Part shown: positions 1 through 58,185 of the stretch, piece by piece
How the letters are laid out: each line of letters starts with the position of its first letter
Numbering within the stretch: the stretch's first letter is position 1
Assembly: GCA_903885445.1 (NCBI GenBank)
Contig: CAISIO010000006.1
Location: forward strand, 79,309 to 143,308
DNA: 64,000 nucleotides
Direction: 5' to 3'
Source: Candidatus Staskawiczbacteria bacterium
Lineage (GTDB): Bacteria; Patescibacteriota; Minisyncoccia; Minisyncoccales; Staskawiczbacteraceae
Translations under genes and position numbers: made by a program
The notes under the pieces: generated by a model
What the model was told of the DNA's origin: nothing
Seen by the model: the letters and a program-made list of their open reading frames with translations, nothing else
Databases searched by the model: none

Positions 1-95
1 TTAGGCTTCAACCACTCCTCCCATATGTAATCTAGATACTCTTGCGTCGGGAACACCGACGCAGGCAGCCAACGACCCTCAACCATCTGAGGCAT
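1..95 (-). CDS. N-terminal fragment of a G+C-rich ORF that continues beyond the left window edge; function unknown
   Basis: ATG at 95 (minus) with AAAGGA 7 nt upstream. The frame stays open to position 1 (MPQMVEGRWLPASVFPTQEYLDYIWEEWLKP...). It is missing from the ORF track only because it is truncated. Composition matches 261..548. Confidence 0.35.
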   Translation of the reverse strand, partial: MPQMVEGRWLPASVFPTQEYLDYIWEEWLKP

Positions 96-156
96 TCAGT
101 TGTCCTTTCAACGAACAAACAAAGGTGCGCCTACTACTTTTCGACACTCCGATGAT

Positions 157-184
157 ATTATACCCCTTAAAAAAACATTGTCAA
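157..184 (-). promoter_or_regulatory. sigma70-like promoter for the truncated ORF at 95..1
   Basis: Minus strand reads TTGACA (184..179), a 16-nt spacer, then TATAAT (162..157). It lies in an AT-rich gap between two G+C-rich ORFs. Confidence 0.4.
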
Positions 185-195
185 TCTAAAATTAT

Positions 196-231
196 AAAAA
201 AAGACGGCCTGGCGTTCGCGGACGCCAGGCC
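196..231 (-). terminator. Rho-independent terminator downstream of ORF 261..548
   Basis: Perfect 10-bp inverted repeat GGCCTGGCGT/ACGCCAGGCC (206..231) with a 6-nt loop. On the minus strand it is followed by GTC and a run of seven T (202..196). Confidence 0.75.
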
Positions 232-260
232 AAAGAATGATTGGAGAGGGGTTGACTAGC

Positions 261-548
261 CTAGCTTCGGGGTCGCTGTCGCAGGTCAGGCCTCCTGCAT
301 AGGGTTTTCTGCCCCTCTTTACCGCGGCCGGAGGACTTCTGCCAGGCGGCCACGATCAAGCCCTGGATGTCTTCCGGCTCGACGGGACGGATGTTAGCCG
401 TGATTGCACTGGCCAGAGAGCGCAACACACTGTCACCCGGCCGTGCTCCTTTTGAAACACGTTCCCGAAGAAACACCGCTTCGGGAGTTTGGGGCAAACG
501 ATGAGTGCGCGGTTGAGACGCGGTTGCCGTAGCTGCCACAGTCGTCAT
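261..548 (-). CDS. G+C-rich 95-aa hypothetical protein with a weak carrier-protein-like GDSV(L) motif
   Basis: ORF-track ORF with AAGGA 6 nt upstream of the ATG at 548 and a terminator 30 nt after the stop. I recognise no family. The PGDSVLRSLASAI segment loosely resembles the GxDS(L/I) phosphopantetheine site of ACP/PCP. Confidence 0.55.
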   Translation of the reverse strand: MTTVAATATASQPRTHRLPQTPEAVFLRERVSKGARPGDSVLRSLASAITANIRPVEPEDIQGLIVAAWQKSSGRGKEGQKTLCRRPDLRQRPRS

Positions 549-627
549 GGATCGTCCTTTGTCCTAGTTCTACTCTGTTTCACTGATCACTAATGATACA
601 AGACGTGAGAACCCCCAAGAAACCCCG

Positions 628-696
628 CTAGATTGGATCACCTCCTTCCATGGAAGATTTCAACGAACTTAACCTCGAACACGATTGTTTCGCCAT
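628..696 (-). CDS. Candidate 22-aa mini-ORF (MAKQSCSRLSSLKSSMEGGDPI) in the leader of ORF 261..548
   Basis: AAGGAG (708..703), a 6-nt spacer, then ATG at 696; stop TAG at 630..628. It lies downstream of the promoter at 732..760. It is too short for the ORF track and there is no homology evidence. Confidence 0.25.
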   Translation of the reverse strand: MAKQSCSRLSSLKSSMEGGDPI

Positions 697-731
697 AGTC
701 GGCTCCTTCATCTAATGGCGCTTTCACAATT

Positions 732-760
732 ACTATAGCCCTTTCGTAAATTAATGTCAA
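732..760 (-). promoter_or_regulatory. sigma70-like promoter driving the mini-ORF and the 95-aa ORF
   Basis: Minus strand reads TTGACA (760..755), a 17-nt spacer, then TATAGT (737..732). Confidence 0.4.
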
Positions 761-799
761 TCTTTATTTCGAACCAAATAAAATGTATAATTTTTGAAT

Positions 800-1345
800 A
801 TGATTATAATAATTGGTTTGGGAAATCCCGGAGAACAATATAAAAACACTCGGCACAATATCGGGTTCATGGCAGTTGACGAGTTCGCGAAAAAAAATAG
901 TTTTCCCGAGTTTGAGTTGCAAAAAAAATCCAATGCGCTGGTTTCTGCAAGCAACGACATATTGCTGGCAAAGCCTCAGACATTTATGAACGATTCTGGC
1001 AAGGCAGTAAAAGAAATCTGTAAAAACAAAAAATCCGCGGACTTGATTATAATCCACGACGATATAGACCTGCCGTTGGGAAAAATAAAAATAGTAAAAG
1101 ACCGCGGTTCTGCCGGACACAAAGGAGTCGAGTCTATAATCCAAAACATCGGAAACGACGGATTAATAAGATTTAGAATTGGAATTGGTTCGGAAAATAA
1201 AGTTGAAGCAATGAAGGTTGTTTTGAAAAACTTCTCGACAGAAGAACAAAAAATACTAAACGAGGTTTTGAAAAAAATAGTCAGCGCCCTTGATTTATTT
1301 GTAGCCGAAGGATTGGAAAAAACAATGAATGAATATAATAAATAA
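800..1345 (+). CDS. pth: peptidyl-tRNA hydrolase
   Basis: MIIIIGLGNPGEQYKNTRHNIGF and the later IIHDDIDLPLGKIK..GSAGHKG blocks are typical Pth. The ORF-track start at 794 is TTG; the first ATG is at 800. Confidence 0.9.
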   Translation: MIIIIGLGNPGEQYKNTRHNIGFMAVDEFAKKNSFPEFELQKKSNALVSASNDILLAKPQTFMNDSGKAVKEICKNKKSADLIIIHDDIDLPLGKIKIVKDRGSAGHKGVESIIQNIGNDGLIRFRIGIGSENKVEAMKVVLKNFSTEEQKILNEVLKKIVSALDLFVAEGLEKTMNEYNK

Positions 1346-3377: not shown

Positions 3378-3409
3378 AAAAGAGGGGCGCTGGCTGTTTG
3401 CCAGTCCCC
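3371..3409 (-). terminator. Rho-independent terminator of the FabZ-like gene
   Basis: Imperfect hairpin GGGGcgCTGGC/GCCAGtCCCC (3384..3409) starting at the TAG stop. On the minus strand it is followed by TCTTTTTTAT. Confidence 0.6.
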
Positions 3410-3987
3410 TACGACTCTTGCTCAATCCTGCTCGGATCGAAGGCCACGAGCGATACAGAACCGATAGTTGCCTTTTTCTTTCCGCCCACCTTGGCGACCA
3501 TTCTTCCGCCCTCGATAAGGACGACCCCGCCTAATTCATCGGCGCTCAACTCAGCCCTCATCTCAAGGCAGACGGTTTCACCAGGACGAACAAATCCGCT
3601 GAACTTTGCGGAAGTTACCTCCCTGGCCGCCAACTTCTTGCCCTCCAGCATTTCGCTTATCTCCGGGTCGCGGTAGTGGAACAGAAAAACGCCGAGCAGC
3701 TGGAAGGCCATCTCAATGATATCAACCCCGCGGTGAACTCGCATGCCCTTTACGGGTTCATGCCCTTCGCAGAGCTTGTCCGTAACCTTGAAAGAACCCA
3801 CGACCGCTGTCTTCGTTATTCTGACCTCGTCGAGCAACAGCTTGTCCCCTTCGTGGAAGAGTATCTCCTGGATTTTCTGCTTGTCGACGATGATTTCCTT
3901 GACTTCCTCTTCTTTCGGGGGCTCTTCTTTCGGGGGCTCTTCTTTCGTCTTGTCTCCGCCAAAAGGCCAGAAATTAAACTTCTTCAT
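3409..3987 (-). CDS. G+C-rich FabZ/FabA-like hotdog-fold dehydratase homologue with an N-terminal PKEEP repeat
   Basis: ILFHEGDKLLLDEV and CEGHEPVKGMRVHRGVDIIEMAFQ align with the FabZ blocks LPHRxPFLLVDxV and GHFPxxPvMPGVLxiEaxAQ. The in-frame ATG at 3987 has GGAGAAG upstream, so the longer ORF-track N-terminus is rejected. Confidence 0.7.
   Translation of the reverse strand: MKKFNFWPFGGDKTKEEPPKEEPPKEEEVKEIIVDKQKIQEILFHEGDKLLLDEVRITKTAVVGSFKVTDKLCEGHEPVKGMRVHRGVDIIEMAFQLLGVFLFHYRDPEISEMLEGKKLAAREVTSAKFSGFVRPGETVCLEMRAELSADELGGVVLIEGGRMVAKVGGKKKATIGSVSLVAFDPSRIEQES
3907..3947. repeat. 15-nt tandem repeat, about 2.7 copies, inside the FabZ-like gene
   Basis: CTCTTCTTTCGGGGG occurs at 3907..3921 and 3922..3936, with a partial third copy to 3947. 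On the minus strand it encodes EEPPKEEPPKEEE. Confidence 0.9.
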
Positions 3988-4052
3988 GGGCTTCTCCGTG
4001 TATCTGGTTCGATGGCTGCTTGGTTGTACAAAGGGCTGCTTAACACACGATA

Positions 4053-4080
4053 ATAATACCACGAAATAATAAAAATGCAA
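4053..4080 (-). promoter_or_regulatory. Possible promoter of the FabZ-like gene
   Basis: Minus strand reads TTGCAT (4080..4075), a 16-nt spacer, then TATTAT (4058..4053), preceded by TGg (extended -10-like). Confidence 0.3.
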
Positions 4081-4158
4081 GGTCAATTATGTTCAAATTG
4101 AATTTATGTGCTATATTAAGAAAAACAAACGTATTAATAACTGGCAAATAAATAAAAA

Positions 4159-7972: not shown

Positions 7973-8056
7973 GCCGAGGTGGCGGAACTGGCAGACGCAC
8001 GGGACTCAAAATCCCGCGATCGCAAGGTCATGAGGGTTCAATTCCCTCCCTCGGCA
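7973..8056 (+). tRNA. tRNA-Leu (anticodon CAA), type II with a long variable arm
   Basis: Acceptor GCCGAGG/CCTCGGC plus discriminator A. Anticodon stem CGGGA/TCCCG with loop CTCAAAA. T arm GAGGG-TTCAATT-CCCTC. CCA is not encoded. Confidence 0.9.
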
Positions 8057-8798
8057 CATCATATTCATCAAGCGGTTCAGGTATAATAATTTTTACCGTG
8101 CCGCTTTTTATTTTGTCTTTTAATTTGGGCAAATCATTTTTCCTGAAATCGCGATTCATATGCGTTAATGCCAAACATTTAACTTTATTTTCTTCGGCAA
8201 ATTTTATAGCAGAAACAATTGAGGAGTGACCAATTTTTTCCTGGTCATATAAATAAGTTTCCAAAACCAGCAGGTCTAATCCTTTATAAAAATCTGTCCC
8301 GGGTATCGGCGATCCATCTCCGCCATACGCATAAATATTATTCCCATCATCTATTTTTACGGCCAAGTTTTCTCCAGAATGAACCGTCTTTGCAAAAGAT
8401 AATTTTAAGTCTTGAAAATTTATCTGTTTATCGTCTTTTGACTCAACCAGGTTAATTTTATATTCAAATAGTTCCATAAACCCGCTGTAAATGGACTCCA
8501 TAAATCCTGCAAAATGGTCTTTTATGTTATTTTGGCAAATGATAGTAAGGTCTCTTTTCCTTCCGCCTTCCCACATCCTTAAAAGTAAAGCCGGCAATCC
8601 TAAAAAATGGTCGCCATGAATATGGCTTATACAGATTGCGTCCAAAAAATTTGGGTCTGGATTAAACTTCCACATTTGCCAAGGAATGGTAAAACCGCAG
8701 TCCAAAAGCAACTTGGTTTTATCTGTTAGAACCAAACTGGAATTATTGGGATAATTTTCATCAAACGCCTCGCCAACTCCTAAAAATATAACTTTCAT
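8028..8798 (-). CDS. metallo-beta-lactamase-fold hydrolase
   Basis: HIHGDH (HxHxDH) motif. The ATG at 8798 (MKVIFLGVGEAF) forms an ATGA overlap with the PAP2 stop. The 3' end overlaps tRNA-Leu on the opposite strand by 29 nt. Confidence 0.75.
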   Translation of the reverse strand: MKVIFLGVGEAFDENYPNNSSLVLTDKTKLLLDCGFTIPWQMWKFNPDPNFLDAICISHIHGDHFLGLPALLLRMWEGGRKRDLTIICQNNIKDHFAGFMESIYSGFMELFEYKINLVESKDDKQINFQDLKLSFAKTVHSGENLAVKIDDGNNIYAYGGDGSPIPGTDFYKGLDLLVLETYLYDQEKIGHSSIVSAIKFAEENKVKCLALTHMNRDFRKNDLPKLKDKIKSGTVKIIIPEPLDEYDVPREGIEPS

Positions 8799-16461: not shown

Positions 16462-16508
16462 ATTTTAAAGTTTTTCTATTTTACCACAACTGGCTTGCAA
16501 CAAAAAGA

Positions 16509-16536
16509 TTGACAAACAATTTAAAAATACTATAGT
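16509..16536 (+). promoter_or_regulatory. sigma70-like promoter of the receiver-domain gene
   Basis: TTGACA (16509..16514), a 16-nt spacer, then TATAGT (16531..16536). Downstream: AAAGGAG, then 7 nt, then GTG at 16596. Confidence 0.45.
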
Positions 16537-16595
16537 AATATATTGCGTCAGAAATAGATCCGAACAAGTCTCCAACCAGACAAAGGAGCAAAACT

Positions 16596-16961
16596 GTGGC
16601 TGACATCCTGTTGGTAGAGCCCGCTGCGCAGGTCGTAGAATACCTGCTCGGCATGCTCGCTAGGCACAATGTAACTCAGGTGCCCGATGCCGCAATGGCA
16701 AGAAGTATCATGGCGGAAGGAAGGAAATTCGATCTCCTGATTACCGCCGATAACCTTCGCGGCCAGAGCGGCTTGGAACTGATCGGATGGACACGGACCC
16801 ACTGTCCGAGAGCCCTCCGCACTGTTCTCATGAGCCCCTCGGAGCCGCCCAGCCACAAGGCCCACGGCTTCGTCAAGAAGCCGAAGTACAGGGGCTTCGT
16901 GGCAATCGTCGACAGGCTACTAGCCAGTCAGCCGACACCCGCCACAATTCCAGCGGCCTAA
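16596..16961 (+). CDS. G+C-rich stand-alone response-regulator receiver (REC) domain protein, atypical acidic pocket
   Basis: REC layout: ILLVEP (beta1), FDLLITAD (beta3, D52), VLMSPS (beta4, S80), GFVKKP (beta5, K95-P96). No output domain. GTG start with a strong SD. Confidence 0.7.
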   Translation: MADILLVEPAAQVVEYLLGMLARHNVTQVPDAAMARSIMAEGRKFDLLITADNLRGQSGLELIGWTRTHCPRALRTVLMSPSEPPSHKAHGFVKKPKYRGFVAIVDRLLASQPTPATIPAA

Positions 16962-16985
16962 CAAGGCGCCGTTCATCGCACACCA

Positions 16986-17011
16986 GGGCCTCCCGCGAGG
17001 TCTCTTTTTTT
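16986..17011 (+). terminator. Rho-independent terminator of the receiver gene
   Basis: Hairpin GGGCCTC-CCGC-GAGGTCT (with G-U wobbles) followed by C and seven T. The T-tract abuts the tatD stop codon on the opposite strand. Confidence 0.6.
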
Positions 17012-24140: not shown

Positions 24141-24377
24141 CTATTGAGGCGCCACACAGCTCCATTCTCCCACGGAAACCGGGAGCTGATTGTTGGGTTT
24201 TTGTCCGCCATCGTCGGCCGGCTTGTCCTCCTTGCTTTTGCGAGGATAGCTAACGCAAAATCTAAAACCCAACCCGCGGCAAGGGGAATTTTCGTCTCCG
24301 CCTCGATTCGCGCACGTGCGATTGTCGCATGCGACCCCTAAGGCAGCCCTCATCGGGTCTGTTATGACTCCGCTCAT
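24141..24377 (-). CDS. G+C-rich 78-aa protein with five Cys, no recognisable family
   Basis: GAGGAGG lies 6 nt upstream of the ATG at 24377, with a promoter-like element upstream. Cys at residues 17, 22, 33, 41 and 74. No signal peptide or TM segment is visible. Confidence 0.55.
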   Translation of the reverse strand: MSGVITDPMRAALGVACDNRTCANRGGDENSPCRGLGFRFCVSYPRKSKEDKPADDGGQKPNNQLPVSVGEWSCVAPQ

Positions 24378-36029: not shown

Positions 36030-36476
36030 ATGAAGGTTTATTCGGAAAACAAAAAAGCGGGATTTGATTATGAGATTTTAGAACGCTTTGAGGCGGGGCT
36101 GGTTTTGTTTGGACAGGAAGTAAAATCAATAAAAACCGGGCATATAAATTTGGCGGGGGCTTATGTGGCTTTAAGGGGTGAAGAACCGTTTTTGGTGGGA
36201 GTAAAAGTGCCTCCGTACCAGCCAAATAACGCCGGAGCTGACTTTGGCGAGGAAAGGGAAAGGAAGGTTCTTTTGAACAAAAAAGAGATAAATTATTTGA
36301 TTGGGAAGACAAAAGTGAAGGGTTTTGCCTTGATACCCTTGAAAATTTATGATAACAATGGTAGAATAAAACTCGAATTCGGATTAGCTAAAGGAAAGAG
36401 AAAATACGACAAAAAAGAGAAAATAAAGAAACGGGACGCAGATAGAGAGGTTAATCGCGAATTATCACGGGAGTGA
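36030..36476 (+). CDS. smpB: SsrA-binding protein
   Basis: NKKAGFDYEILERFEAGLVLFGQEVKSIK and a basic C-terminal tail. The ATG at 36030 is preferred over the TTG at 36012. Confidence 0.92.
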   Translation: MKVYSENKKAGFDYEILERFEAGLVLFGQEVKSIKTGHINLAGAYVALRGEEPFLVGVKVPPYQPNNAGADFGEERERKVLLNKKEINYLIGKTKVKGFALIPLKIYDNNGRIKLEFGLAKGKRKYDKKEKIKKRDADREVNRELSRE

Positions 36477-36819
36477 TTGTTTCGACAGGTGCTCTTTGCT
36501 AAGATATGCAAACCCAGTATTCTGAAACCTGGTAAAACTTTCAGAAAAATCATAATTGCCAATTTATTTAATAGGCAACCAGCGTTAGCTTTAGCTTAAA
36601 TGCTGCATCTTCGCCATCAACTCCTGATAGGTGGGTCGAAGGTGTTATTTATCAGGATAGATAATTTTTTCTCCCCGAATAATTATCGAAAACAACCGGG
36701 GATAGGATATCAGAAATTTTTTCTATCCCGTACCTGATATTCAAACAAATAGGATAGAATAAGTTTGTAGAATTATTTTAGAAAGGCATTTGGACGGGAT
36801 TTCAATATCCCCACTTCCA
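36469..36819 (+). ncRNA. ssrA: tmRNA (SsrA), tag ANLFNRQPALALA
   Basis: 5' GGGAGUG pairs with 3' CACUUCC, including the G3-U alanine identity pair. T arm GGGAU-UUCAAUA-UCCCC (GACGGGAUUUCAAUAUCCCCA). Tag reading frame GCC..GCT TAA at 36558..36599. The gene directly follows smpB. Confidence 0.9.
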
Positions 36820-36840
36820 CATTAGTAATTAAAAAATCAA

Positions 36841-45576: not shown

Positions 45577-45579
45577 CTG

Positions 45580-45651
45580 TGCCCCCAGCTGGATTCGAAC
45601 CAGCATCGCAGGCTTCGGAAGCCTAAATTCTATCCATTGAAATATGGGGGC
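45580..45651 (-). tRNA. tRNA-Arg (anticodon CCG)
   Basis: The 72-nt cloverleaf was checked by hand. Acceptor GCCCCCA/TGGGGGC. Anticodon stem TAGGC/GCCTG with loop TTCCGAA. T arm GCTGG-TTCGAAT-CCAGC. Discriminator A. Confidence 0.9.
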
Positions 45652-56463: not shown

Positions 56464-58185
56464 TCAATTAGAAGGAGTAATAAACCGGCAAGGCGTAAGC
56501 CCGGGGTGAAGCTTAACGGCTGCCTCATTGCCTTCGTAAAAAGTCGGCGGCTCGTAGGTCCAGCCAGATGCCAAGCGCCTTTCTTCACGAAGAATCTTAT
56601 ACCAGACAAACGGCCCGCCGAGCAAAGAGAATATACGGCTCTTGAACCCAAGCACGCGGTGCATTTCGCCCAACAGCACAGACATCTTGGCGTACATTGC
56701 CGGGTTGCGTCGGTAGTACAACCTTGCGCCCGCAACCATGGCAATATATGTTGTTGCCAAATCACGGGCTTCCCATAAATAACGGTCGCGGATACGCTTA
56801 TCGGGATGGTTGCGATAGCGTTCAAGACCGGCCAGCGTAGTCCGCGCAACACGGGCAACGCTTGGCCCATTGACGGCAAAATCGAGACGGAAAGCTTCCA
56901 GAAGCATTTTTGTCTCGTCACCCGGTGGGATGTGCGGATGGCGGTAGTTTAGAATGAACTGCCCGTGAACGTCAGCCGGATTAACCTCAGAATCAGCCTT
57001 CATCAACCCGCGGGCGGTGAGTTCGGCGTGGAGCGGGGTACCGGCAGCGGGAGTGTAAAGCATAAACTGGTGGAAATCTGTGTCGTATCTCGACGCATAT
57101 TTTATCGCGGCACCGATATTCTGGGGCGTATGTTCGTCCAAAGCAATGATTGTCGAGCCCAACACGCGAATACCGTGTGACTGAAGGTCCTTCACCAACG
57201 CAAACGCGTCAATGCCCTCCAGTTTTTGGTACTGGCTGTTTTCGCCTTCCAGTCCCATCCACACCCACGAGATTCCAAGCCGGACAAGCTCGTCCATTGT
57301 GTACGAACGAATCACGTTCGCAGAGCTGAACACGTACAGGCTCCACGACTTGTTGTGAGCCTCCATCAGTTCCAGCAGACGCATGGCTCGCTTGCGGTGG
57401 AGCAGGAAATTCTCGTCCATAACAAAGAACGATCGAATTTTCATGGTCTGCTCAAGCTGACACATGACATCGAATAGTTCTTCTCCACTCTCGTAGAACT
57501 GGACGCATTTCCCCTTTCCGCCGAACATGGCCGAAGTAGAACAGAAATTGCATCCCAATGGACATCCAACTGACGGGAGTAATGTTGCCGCCACTTCGCC
57601 CTTTAGCTTGATTCCAACGCATCGCCCGCCCATGCCTGACTTGATCAGCGGATGGCGAATCGGGGTGTTCTCGTCTTCGCCAAGATATCTGCGGAACCAA
57701 CGCACTCCTTCACCCTGGACGACAATATCTGCGTCGATTTTCTCGCCCAAGTCGAGTACATTGGCTATGTGCCCGCCAACGACTATCACCGCTTTTGGCT
57801 GATAATACCGAATCCACTCGCACATCTTGCGGACCTTGCGGATATTGGGCCAGATAGAGGAAATACCAATGATATCATACTGTCTGCTTTGTAGCTCCTG
57901 TATAAAGCGCCTTCGCGTCGGAAAATCCAGTAAAGTGCACGGCGCGGTAATATTAGCCTGGATAAGCATCAAGCCCCAGCTTCGATGGAACATCCGCAAA
58001 GAGAAGGGTCCCTGCTCGCGAGTAACCTGGTTCTGATAGAGTTCCATCGGGTTGATGGCTCGACTTCCATACTCGTCGTCTCGGGCGTACGGCCCGAAGA
58101 CACTGGTCAAAAGGACTTTCGCCCCTGTCCCGAGCGGATGCGGTTGCACCTCTGTTTCTTCTGCGCTGATTTTTATGGCTGACAT
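56464..58185 (-). CDS. G+C-rich class-B (B12-binding domain) radical SAM enzyme
   Basis: N-terminal Rossmann-like B12-binding region (YDIIGISSIW, AVIVVGGHIAN) followed by the CxxxCxxC cluster CPLGCNFC. GAGGAG lies 6 nt upstream of the ATG at 58185. Confidence 0.85.
   Translation of the reverse strand: MSAIKISAEETEVQPHPLGTGAKVLLTSVFGPYARDDEYGSRAINPMELYQNQVTREQGPFSLRMFHRSWGLMLIQANITAPCTLLDFPTRRRFIQELQSRQYDIIGISSIWPNIRKVRKMCEWIRYYQPKAVIVVGGHIANVLDLGEKIDADIVVQGEGVRWFRRYLGEDENTPIRHPLIKSGMGGRCVGIKLKGEVAATLLPSVGCPLGCNFCSTSAMFGGKGKCVQFYESGEELFDVMCQLEQTMKIRSFFVMDENFLLHRKRAMRLLELMEAHNKSWSLYVFSSANVIRSYTMDELVRLGISWVWMGLEGENSQYQKLEGIDAFALVKDLQSHGIRVLGSTIIALDEHTPQNIGAAIKYASRYDTDFHQFMLYTPAAGTPLHAELTARGLMKADSEVNPADVHGQFILNYRHPHIPPGDETKMLLEAFRLDFAVNGPSVARVARTTLAGLERYRNHPDKRIRDRYLWEARDLATTYIAMVAGARLYYRRNPAMYAKMSVLLGEMHRVLGFKSRIFSLLGGPFVWYKILREERRLASGWTYEPPTFYEGNEAAVKLHPGLTPCRFITPSN

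Follow-up and report, generated by a model that had tools for sequence, protein, structure and literature searches.

Organisation of the unit at the left edge of the window

The window analysed here is a stretch of 64,000 nucleotides from Candidatus Staskawiczbacteria bacterium (contig CAISIO010000006.1, positions 79,309 to 143,308 of the forward strand), and all coordinates below refer to it. Our subject is a G+C-rich unit at its left edge, read on the minus strand, which carries an open reading frame (ORF) of 95 codons. Window positions 196–760 probably form a self-contained single-gene transcription unit, in which a promoter close to consensus is followed by a ~177-nt leader, a modest ribosome binding site (RBS), the 95-codon ORF and a strong intrinsic terminator.

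The promoter of this unit, P1 (TTGACA-N17-TATAGT, 760..732), is of the sigma-70 type, agrees with the consensus at 11 of 12 positions and stands back-to-back with pth, the gene for peptidyl-tRNA hydrolase (794..1345, plus strand). Transcription is predicted to start from P1 at about position 725, and the distance from promoter to ORF gives the messenger RNA (mRNA) of the small protein a 5′ untranslated region (UTR), or leader, of ~177 nt (549..725). The RBS, AAAGGA (555..560), lies 6 nt before the ATG at 548 of the 95-codon ORF (548..261, stop codon TAG at 263..261), whose predicted product is a small basic protein with PGDSVLRSLASAI as residues 37–49. The 3′ UTR (233..260) includes a C/U-rich stretch, CCCCUCUCC (251..243), which is a possible, marginally supported partner of the leader motif described below. 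It is followed by the terminator (231..196), with a perfect G+C-rich stem of 10 bp (231..222 paired with 215..206), a 6-nt loop and a run of seven T residues (202..196).

Within the leader there is a mini-ORF, MAKQSCSRLSSLKSSMEGGDPI (696..628; 22 codons plus stop), with the RBS AAGGAG (708..703) 6 nt ahead of its ATG at 696; an alternative in-frame ATG at 711 would lengthen it to 27 amino acids. Its 3′ end contains a 13-nt motif, AAGGAGGTGATCC (647..635), that is a perfect complement of the 3′ tail of 16S ribosomal RNA (rRNA), and a spacer of 79 nt separates the mini-ORF from the 95-codon ORF. A 17-nt direct repeat, 88% identical, relates the leader segment that follows the motif (613–629) to the 3′ arm of a hairpin in the 95-codon ORF (464–480); it could be due to chance or to alternative pairing.

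Beyond the terminator a second promoter, P2 (TTGACA-N16-TATAAT, 184..157; 12 of 12 consensus positions), precedes the next gene, most likely lepB, of which the first 31 codons (1..95, ATG at 95, RBS AAAGGA at 108..103) are read on the same strand before the ORF leaves the window. This partial ORF contains a perfect 8-bp hairpin, TGCGTCGG/CCGACGCA (43..63), and another perfect 8-bp hairpin, UCCCGAAG...CUUCGGGA (463..486), lies inside the 95-codon ORF, where it encodes QTPEAVFLRE. Altogether, positions 1–800 hold three distinct perfect hairpins of at least 8 bp versus 0.1 expected (P ~0.0005), and G+C content is 53–57% over approximately 150–700 compared with ~37% window-wide. A preliminary description of this DNA had listed P1, the RBS and 22-residue mini-ORF, a spacer of about 80 nt, the 95-codon ORF, the terminator, the second promoter and the ORF that leaves the window; all are present where it placed them or close by, as is the hairpin at 43..63, which is perfect. 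The 13-nt complement of 16S rRNA and the hairpin at 463..486 were not on its list. Its division of the region into two consecutive, independently promoted units also holds. The positions of the promoters and the terminator are conserved in related loci.

Evidence that the 95-codon ORF is a gene

Related loci (L numbers below) were fetched by way of pth and comprised 28 genome and 80 metagenome loci. A phmmer search of 1312 six-frame segments from the syntenic regions found one detectable homologue of the 95-residue protein, in L053 (E = 2.6e-5), in which the segments RYPQTPEAKFLRG, EAWEKSTSRS and KPRCKK align with RLPQTPEAVFLRE, AAWQKSSGRG and KTLCRR of the window protein. Over 86 aligned codons 32 residues are identical, 16 of them specified by different codons, and nucleotide identity is 0.53, 0.56 and 0.40 at codon positions 1, 2 and 3 respectively. 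The in-frame comparison scores 22.8 bits versus at most 8 for the other eight pairs of frames. At the DNA level the sole stretch that also matches is the hairpin at 463..486, which the L053 version keeps with one G-U pair.

An iterated profile started from the window/L053 pair gathered 27 ORFs, every one of them on the lepB strand; the reverse strand yielded none. When the family hidden Markov model (HMM) was built without the window ORF, this ORF came first among 1064 six-frame segments of the window (E = 7.5e-6) with a full-length alignment. The link between the window and the other relatives came through L053, found in the metagenome scan; a first family profile, made from eight hand-picked relatives, had given the window ORF an E value of 4. 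Only ~8 called proteins of the family are present among 5.8 billion, and two profile searches of that protein set returned almost nothing beyond the seed sequences.

Close pairs of relatives allow the type of substitution to be read directly. Between the ORFs of L003 and L030 the differences at codon positions 1, 2 and 3 are 25, 23 and 50; 27 of the codon changes are synonymous, and one indel keeps the reading frame. For L006 and L007 the corresponding figures are 13, 7 and 20. On this coding-type pattern of substitution the ORFs of the relatives are real genes. For the window ORF, the match to L053 is confined to the reading frame, with the third position least conserved, and the profile from which the ORF had been left out ranks it first; on these comparisons the 95-codon ORF is a real and previously unannotated gene, as the preliminary description had taken it to be. 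Homology of the window/L053 pair to the core family is likely but not proven, the link being marginal and passing through L053; position, strand, size, basic tail and predicted helices all agree with it, as does the AAAGGA-N6-ATG arrangement (in-frame 'KGIIM'), which is common to L040, L042, L056 and L081.

The two closest relatives by pth identity have only basic ORFs of 56–60 amino acids in the region upstream of pth on the lepB strand (L031, 227–409; L034, 203–373). These end in ...VH or ...AH, as do many family members, and may be truncated or further diverged versions of the family. Two short metagenome contigs, L001 (586 nt) and L030 (639 nt), hold just the G+C-rich unit, and the former, an ENA contig, is identical to window 166..751. 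Assemblies seem to break at the boundary between A+T-rich and G+C-rich sequence, which may be one reason why the gene is so rarely annotated.

Genomic context of the small gene

Most of the close loci have a G+C-rich patch of 300–700 nt directly upstream of pth, and by blastn the relatives' patches are without similarity to that of the window. The gene on the far side of the patch in the relatives encodes signal peptidase I (…IRYFLFQPFIV…), and the PIRYFLFQPF motif of LepB is carried by the next gene in 19 of 20 family loci. Among 52 loci with lepB and pth back-to-back, the spacer is long in 36 (median ~660 nt), with a G+C peak of at least 0.48 in 32 of these; in the remaining 16 the spacer measures just 63–160 nt and the unit is absent. 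Where other genes part pth from lepB (L010 and L012), the small gene remains directly upstream of lepB-hisS. The transcription signals recur as well: a P1-equivalent promoter was found in 26 of 27 family entries, leaders are usually 70–270 nt long, a terminator follows the stop codon by 20–60 nt in all 21 loci whose 3′ ends were read, and lepB has a separate promoter after it.

Judged by this shared gene order, the small gene adjoins the 5′ side of lepB in Candidatus Staskawiczbacteria and neighbouring Parcubacteria, where it usually occupies the space that separates lepB from the divergently transcribed pth, and the unit is an accessory, lineage-specific and fast-evolving small-protein gene. 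The preliminary description had rightly called the unit compositionally distinct, and its absence from 16 of the 52 loci makes it accessory too.

In the window itself the partial ORF at the left edge (…EYLDYIWEEWLKP) resembles the N-terminal region of LepB (…KYLSFAWELVKIA…). Seven of the eight best phmmer matches of the 31-residue fragment are LepB segments, all non-significant (E ≥ 0.4), and an HMM of the LepB N-terminal region has no significant match to the fragment. On synteny we consider the ORF starting at ATG 95 to be most likely lepB, for signal peptidase I. As P2 and this ORF most likely belong to lepB, nothing foreign is expected further to the left. It had been proposed that the region is a foreign island with its main body to the left of the window; the presence of the same slot in dozens of related loci of the candidate phyla radiation (CPR), with lepB next in 19 of 20, and the lack of any phage or plasmid match argue otherwise, and ordinary backbone genes appear largely to continue leftward, as far as synteny tells.

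Searches of phage and plasmid collections gave no match to the unit at the DNA or protein level, self-BLAST found no second copy in the window, and there is no tandem array. A repeated or mobile element was accordingly rejected as a description of the unit. The window has further G+C-rich islands, at 3409–4086 (minus strand, directly after mfd, with a 225-residue ORF labelled FabZ-like only in the preliminary description), 16481–17010 (a receiver-domain-like ORF of 121 residues, plus strand, 16596–16961), 24141–24377 (a 78-residue ORF, minus strand) and 56464–58185 (a 573-residue ORF, minus strand, for which the label radical S-adenosylmethionine (rSAM) likewise comes only from that description). 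The ORFs of the last three have no match to the small-protein family profile. Kinship among the islands was considered and rejected, as they are mutually unrelated and hold different genes. In a more distant lineage, a 630-nt in-frame indel distinguishes L066 (350–983) from L077 and L079; it lies in a very large secreted repeat protein encoded upstream of pth (1639 amino acids in L012) and, being inside this unrelated protein, was set aside as no part of the finding.

Predicted properties of the protein

The family members (n = 30) are 64–106 amino acids long with isoelectric points (pI) of 9.3–12; the window protein has a pI of 11.5 and a basic tail with the motif KTLCRR. For a core member, P0005, an AlphaFold2 (AF2) model made from an eight-sequence alignment has predicted local distance difference test (pLDDT) values of 82–92 over residues 1–65. 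The model has a strand-helix-helix-strand-helix order, with helices at 13–26, 33–47 and 53–68, a short strand separating the second helix from the third, and a disordered basic tail thereafter. The window protein, folded alone, is predicted to have helices at 22–32, 39–51 and 58–72, the positions expected from the alignment. A C[KR][KR] motif in the tail occurs in 11 of 30 members versus 22% of equally basic controls; on this comparison it was rejected as a family signature and is only a subfamily trait.

No member of the family matches Pfam, NCBIfam, PHROGs or PADLOC above threshold, and Foldseek comparisons against PDB and BFVD yielded no significant match (best E 0.16–0.33), the weak matches being mostly to homeodomains, winged helices and a TEA domain. 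The models are consistent with a protein composed of a three-helix core resembling a helix-turn-helix (HTH) and a disordered tail rich in Arg, Lys, Cys and His. As a guess at its function, binding to nucleic acid is the most likely, with DNA the probable target.

The preliminary description had offered another function. It noted, as a weak inference, that PGDSVLRSLASAI is positioned like the phosphopantetheine-attachment site of a carrier protein; in the reading built on this, the mini-ORF may be a precursor peptide, and both belong to a biosynthetic island that was acquired horizontally and extends leftward. Acyl and peptidyl carrier proteins (PF00550) do share with the window protein a small size, a helical content and a GDS tripeptide (residues 38–40) ahead of a predicted helix; the G+C-rich composition, and the FabZ-like and rSAM labels that the description gave to other G+C-rich ORFs of the window, were in keeping with such an island. 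Carrier proteins are acidic, however, and have four helices to the three predicted here. The idea was rejected because none of the 30 family members matches PF00550 at E ≤ 1 in scans that took in the window protein and 25 and 10 members, the pI is 11.5, three helices are predicted, and Ser40 (GDSVL) is not conserved, aligning with a non-serine residue in L053 (...PEAVHERL...) in a column that is variable across the family. The Foldseek ranking has no acyl carrier protein (ACP) structure before position 50 (E = 7.3, root-mean-square deviation 8 Å). With the same slot occupied in relatives and lepB next to it, the mini-ORF not conserved and phage or plasmid matches lacking, we give the biosynthetic-island reading almost no credence.

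The weak profile matches bear on the origin of the gene. Sub-threshold matches to IS630/Tc1/pogo-type HTH domains recur in several libraries (HTH_33, HTH_Tnp_Tc3_2, HTH_32, HTH_ABP1_N, transpos_IS630 and PDB 1iuf); the NCBIfam model transpos_IS630 reaches E = 0.016 and the CENP-B-type domain of Abp1 in PDB E = 0.07. The family has in common with the N-terminal HTH of IS630/Tc1 transposases (HTH_33, PF13592; HTH_Tnp_Tc3_2, PF01498; CENP-B/Abp1) a predicted three-helix topology and the pattern '...L..L...F...FG..V....V.RLL..G'. On one reading the unit would be a relic or domesticated fragment of an insertion sequence (IS) of this type from which only the DNA-binding domain of the transposase is left, its G+C richness reflecting a foreign origin. 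The absence of the unit from 16 of 52 loci, and a 12-nt A+T-rich inverted repeat (92% complementary, 185–196 and 786–797) that brackets it, would fit as well, although the repeat is so short and A+T-rich that it is probably due to chance. Nothing, however, reaches a curated threshold: for HTH_33 and HTH_Tnp_Tc3_2 the family scores at best 13.1 bits where the cut-off is 25, and 12.4 where it is 31.5, and the window protein has no match to either. Unlike a transposase, the protein stands alone, with no DDE domain and no second ORF, and has an extra disordered basic tail. The gene is served by a promoter, an RBS and a terminator of its own, which many species share and which are always in the same chromosomal slot and orientation; it is present as a single copy per locus and in the window, and shows purifying selection in close pairs. 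Descent from an IS630/Tc1-type element is therefore in our view unlikely; as it concerns origin only, it would also be compatible with the single-gene unit that we favour.

A candidate decoy Shine-Dalgarno sequence in the leader

The 16S tail against which complementarity was scored is the generally known one, there being no rRNA gene in the window. AAGGAGGTGATCC is unique in the window, where 0.05 occurrences would be expected even with one mismatch allowed. It lies 87 nt upstream of ATG 548 and has no ATG, GTG or TTG at 4–12 nt after it (ATC TAG instead). The ordinary genes of the window have at most 7 nt of 16S complementarity upstream of their starts. Across the related loci GGAGGTGAT is present in the leaders of 13 of 104 on the lepB strand, mostly as AAGGAGGTGATC(C), and in none on the other strand; it is the actual RBS only in L006/L007.

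The relation of the motif to short upstream ORFs varies. L005, L042 and L056 lack an upstream ORF, and their motif is ~25 nt from the predicted 5′ end; L053 has no equivalent of the mini-ORF; and in L048, L055 and L063 unrelated upstream ORFs of 9–17 codons end in the motif or just after it. The 22-residue mini-ORF, singled out in the preliminary description, was thus not found to be a conserved peptide: short upstream ORFs, of 9–22 codons, exist in some relatives only, with unrelated sequences, and what is conserved instead is the anti-16S motif. At most the short upstream ORF would be a variable regulatory accessory.

A 13-nt complement of 16S rRNA without a usable start codon points to a decoy Shine-Dalgarno (SD) sequence, which probably stabilises the mRNA. 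The analogy is with STAB-SD, a 5′ stabiliser that Agaisse and Lereclus are said to have described in 1996 for the cryIIIA mRNA of Bacillus thuringiensis. As in STAB-SD, an SD-like sequence complementary to the 16S 3′ end is found in the 5′ UTR, far from the start codon, where it does not initiate the main ORF, and in several relatives it is ~25 nt from the predicted 5′ end. The present complementarity is, by contrast, much longer (13 nt), a short upstream ORF runs through or ends in the motif in the window and in three relatives, and the stabilising effect is a predicted one. In Bacillus subtilis, ribosomes at the strong SD of hbs mRNA block RNase J1 (PMC5737220). Like a STAB-SD element, the leader motif would most likely retain a ribosome or 30S subunit close to the 5′ end, shielding the mRNA against 5′-end-dependent decay. 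High G+C at synonymous sites, together with several perfect hairpins, may further make for a stable, structured mRNA in an A+T-rich genome.

In some relatives the partner of the motif might instead, or in addition, be a mimic of the 16S tail in the 3′ UTR. L042, L056 and L081 carry GAUCACCUC between stop codon and terminator, and in these three 3′ UTRs the sequence CUGAUCACCUC(U)UUUUCC resembles the 3′ tail of 16S rRNA and is complementary to the leader AAGGAGGUGAUC of the same mRNA. Pairing was tested with explicit 3′ UTRs, from stop codon to terminator, against shuffled sequences: only 0.2–0.4% of shuffles are as good as the pairing in L042/L056, compared with 3.6% in L005, and the pairing is not significant in L048, L055 and L030. 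In the window the minimum free energy (MFE) fold pairs the leader motif with the C/U-rich stretch of the 3′ UTR. Pairing between 5′ and 3′ UTRs has precedents in Staphylococcus aureus icaR (PMC3868564) and B. subtilis hbs (PMC5737220), where the 5′ UTR likewise has an SD-like element and the 3′ UTR a C/U-rich stretch of anti-SD type complementary to it; the complementarity is strong in L042, L056 and L081. The present case differs in that the pairing does not involve the ORF's RBS on the 5′ side and is clade-specific and non-significant in the window.

These data raise the question of whether the RNA could be the main actor and the protein secondary, with the leader titrating or recruiting 30S subunits, or pairing with the 16S-tail mimic to give a closed-loop mRNA whose opening controls expression. 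A perfect match of 13 nt far exceeds what an RBS needs, and in the relatives with GAUCACCUC the cognate pairing beats 99.6% of shuffles; in L042 and L056, moreover, the UTRs are 88–95% identical where the core of the ORF cannot be aligned, and the icaR and hbs precedents show such pairing in other bacteria. But the motif is present in just 13 of 104 loci, the pairing falls short of significance in four of those tested (the window, L048, L055 and L030), and the ORFs are under protein-level constraint. A primarily RNA-level function is unlikely in our judgement, somewhat more so than the insertion-sequence origin considered above.

In the leaders of L003, L030, L042, L056 and L063, and after the first ORF in L006/L007, the RBS is closely preceded by a conserved hairpin, ACAGAGAAG-RGGCA-CUUUUCUGU, which neither the window nor L053 has.

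Variation of the ORF core

In most pairs of loci lepB aligns at ~70% and the unit does not align at all. The sharpest case is that of L042 and L056 (JGI Ga0172379_10009466 and Ga0074195_1001349), which are ~91% identical over ~6 kb and in which the sole stretch that cannot be aligned, of ~200 nt (L042 2226–2422), is the core of the small ORF. Around it, at 88–95% identity, are the promoter, the leader with its motif, the leader hairpin and RBS, the first five codons, the last ~15 codons, the 3′ UTR, the terminator and the lepB promoter. Hypervariability of the core would explain why the window protein is an orphan. Some loci (L006/L007, L008 and L013) have two tandem ORFs in the slot, so that unequal crossing-over between paralogues is one possible source of the variation; diversifying selection is possibly another.

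These observations could be taken further. The slot upstream of lepB might house a hypervariable cassette gene, the helical core of ~65 codons being swapped at ~91% genome identity while flanks, UTRs and terminator are kept, by allele exchange or by diversifying selection on a specificity determinant, for example in the dealings of these episymbiotic CPR bacteria with hosts, phages or their own DNA; the ends of the mRNA would engage or imitate the anti-SD tail, and the window protein would be one allele. We regard this extended reading as tentative and, taken as a whole, doubtful, though less so than the origin in an insertion sequence.

Coding gene or structured RNA

In an A+T-rich genome a G+C-rich patch is often an RNA gene, and on the plus strand the DNA at ~635–647 reads GGATCACCTCCTT, like the 3′ end of 16S rRNA; matches to rRNA and other known RNAs were therefore sought. 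A 16S rRNA 3′ end on the plus strand was rejected, Rfam giving no match and the conserved helix-45 region being missing upstream. Rfam has no match at gathering score in 1–1000, where only noise appears at E ≤ 10, and none in seven related loci. Its sole matches in the window are a transfer-messenger RNA (36469–36822, plus strand), a transfer RNA (tRNA) for Leu (CAA; 7973–8057, plus strand) and one for Arg (CCG; 45579–45651, minus strand), and there is no rRNA or RNase P RNA in the window.

Island ORFs have a G+C content of 0.54, 0.46 and 0.54 at codon positions 1, 2 and 3 versus 0.45, 0.36 and 0.31 for lepB from the same loci, and at the third position every island ORF exceeds any lepB fragment. 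This excess at the third position indicates that the richness is not merely a matter of amino-acid content.

A single-gene unit encoding the small basic protein remains the explanation that we consider probable, and several observations weigh against it. An ORF of at least 95 amino acids arises in 13–33% of shuffles, so that its length alone is no evidence of a gene, and the ORF has no codon-position periodicity in G+C. The protein is otherwise an orphan, finding only itself among 5.8 billion proteins (exhaustive phmmer) and 1.84 billion cluster representatives. Its link to the family is sensitive to a single sequence: with a profile lacking L053 the window ORF scores only E = 0.27, and L053 itself matches the core family at E = 0.05. 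The AF2 model of the window protein is of low confidence (pLDDT 58), and as no match of fold or family is significant, it is topology, charge and sub-threshold matches that underlie the terms 'HTH' and 'DNA binding'. The identity of the left gene as lepB rests on synteny. In the window the upstream ORF reads through the anti-16S motif, which complicates a simple model of a 30S decoy, and the duplex between leader and 3′ UTR (-17.8 kcal/mol) is equalled by 8% of shuffles and is thus not significant. Finally, although all 19 family transcripts examined fold better than shuffles (mean z = -3.3 for the sense strand), the antisense strands have a mean z of -2.5, and a negative score on both strands is not specific; shuffling of compositionally patchy sequence inflates such z-scores. 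The folding data give weak support to a selected, stable mRNA.

Several of the same points would suit a different explanation, namely a gene for a structured non-coding RNA, with the 95-codon ORF a by-product of its G+C-rich sequence. Such a gene, bounded by promoter and terminator within an A+T-rich genome, could account for an ORF of chance length without periodicity or relatives in protein databases, for the excess of perfect hairpins and the folding of all 19 transcripts, and for UTR blocks in L042/L056 that are more conserved than the body of the ORF. Against it, the conservation with L053 is frame-specific and biased at the third position, close pairs show coding-type substitution and an in-frame indel, the profile singles out the ORF, the RBS arrangement is conserved, antisense strands fold nearly as well and Rfam has nothing to offer at E ≤ 10 for this region or the seven related loci. 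A non-coding RNA gene is consequently very improbable, ranking for us only above the carrier-protein island.

Significance

The question originally posed of this locus received a negative answer: the locus encodes no carrier protein, and nothing points to a gene cluster that continues to the left. What the locus has is a member of a family that is undescribed yet of a known kind, with a small HTH-like basic protein and an mRNA with a probable decoy-SD leader. Annotation pipelines mostly overlook this lineage-specific small gene, and such genes are a blind spot in genomes of the CPR/Patescibacteria. The very long candidate decoy SD sequence, together with the 16S-tail mimic of some relatives, would be a testable instance of Bacillus-type mRNA stabilisation in an uncultivated phylum, and the weight of the finding would rise if the cassette-like variation and the pair formed by the 16S-tail complement and its mimic prove to be functional. 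The different protein cores found inside conserved UTRs provide a concrete case in which to follow the turnover and diversification of small proteins.

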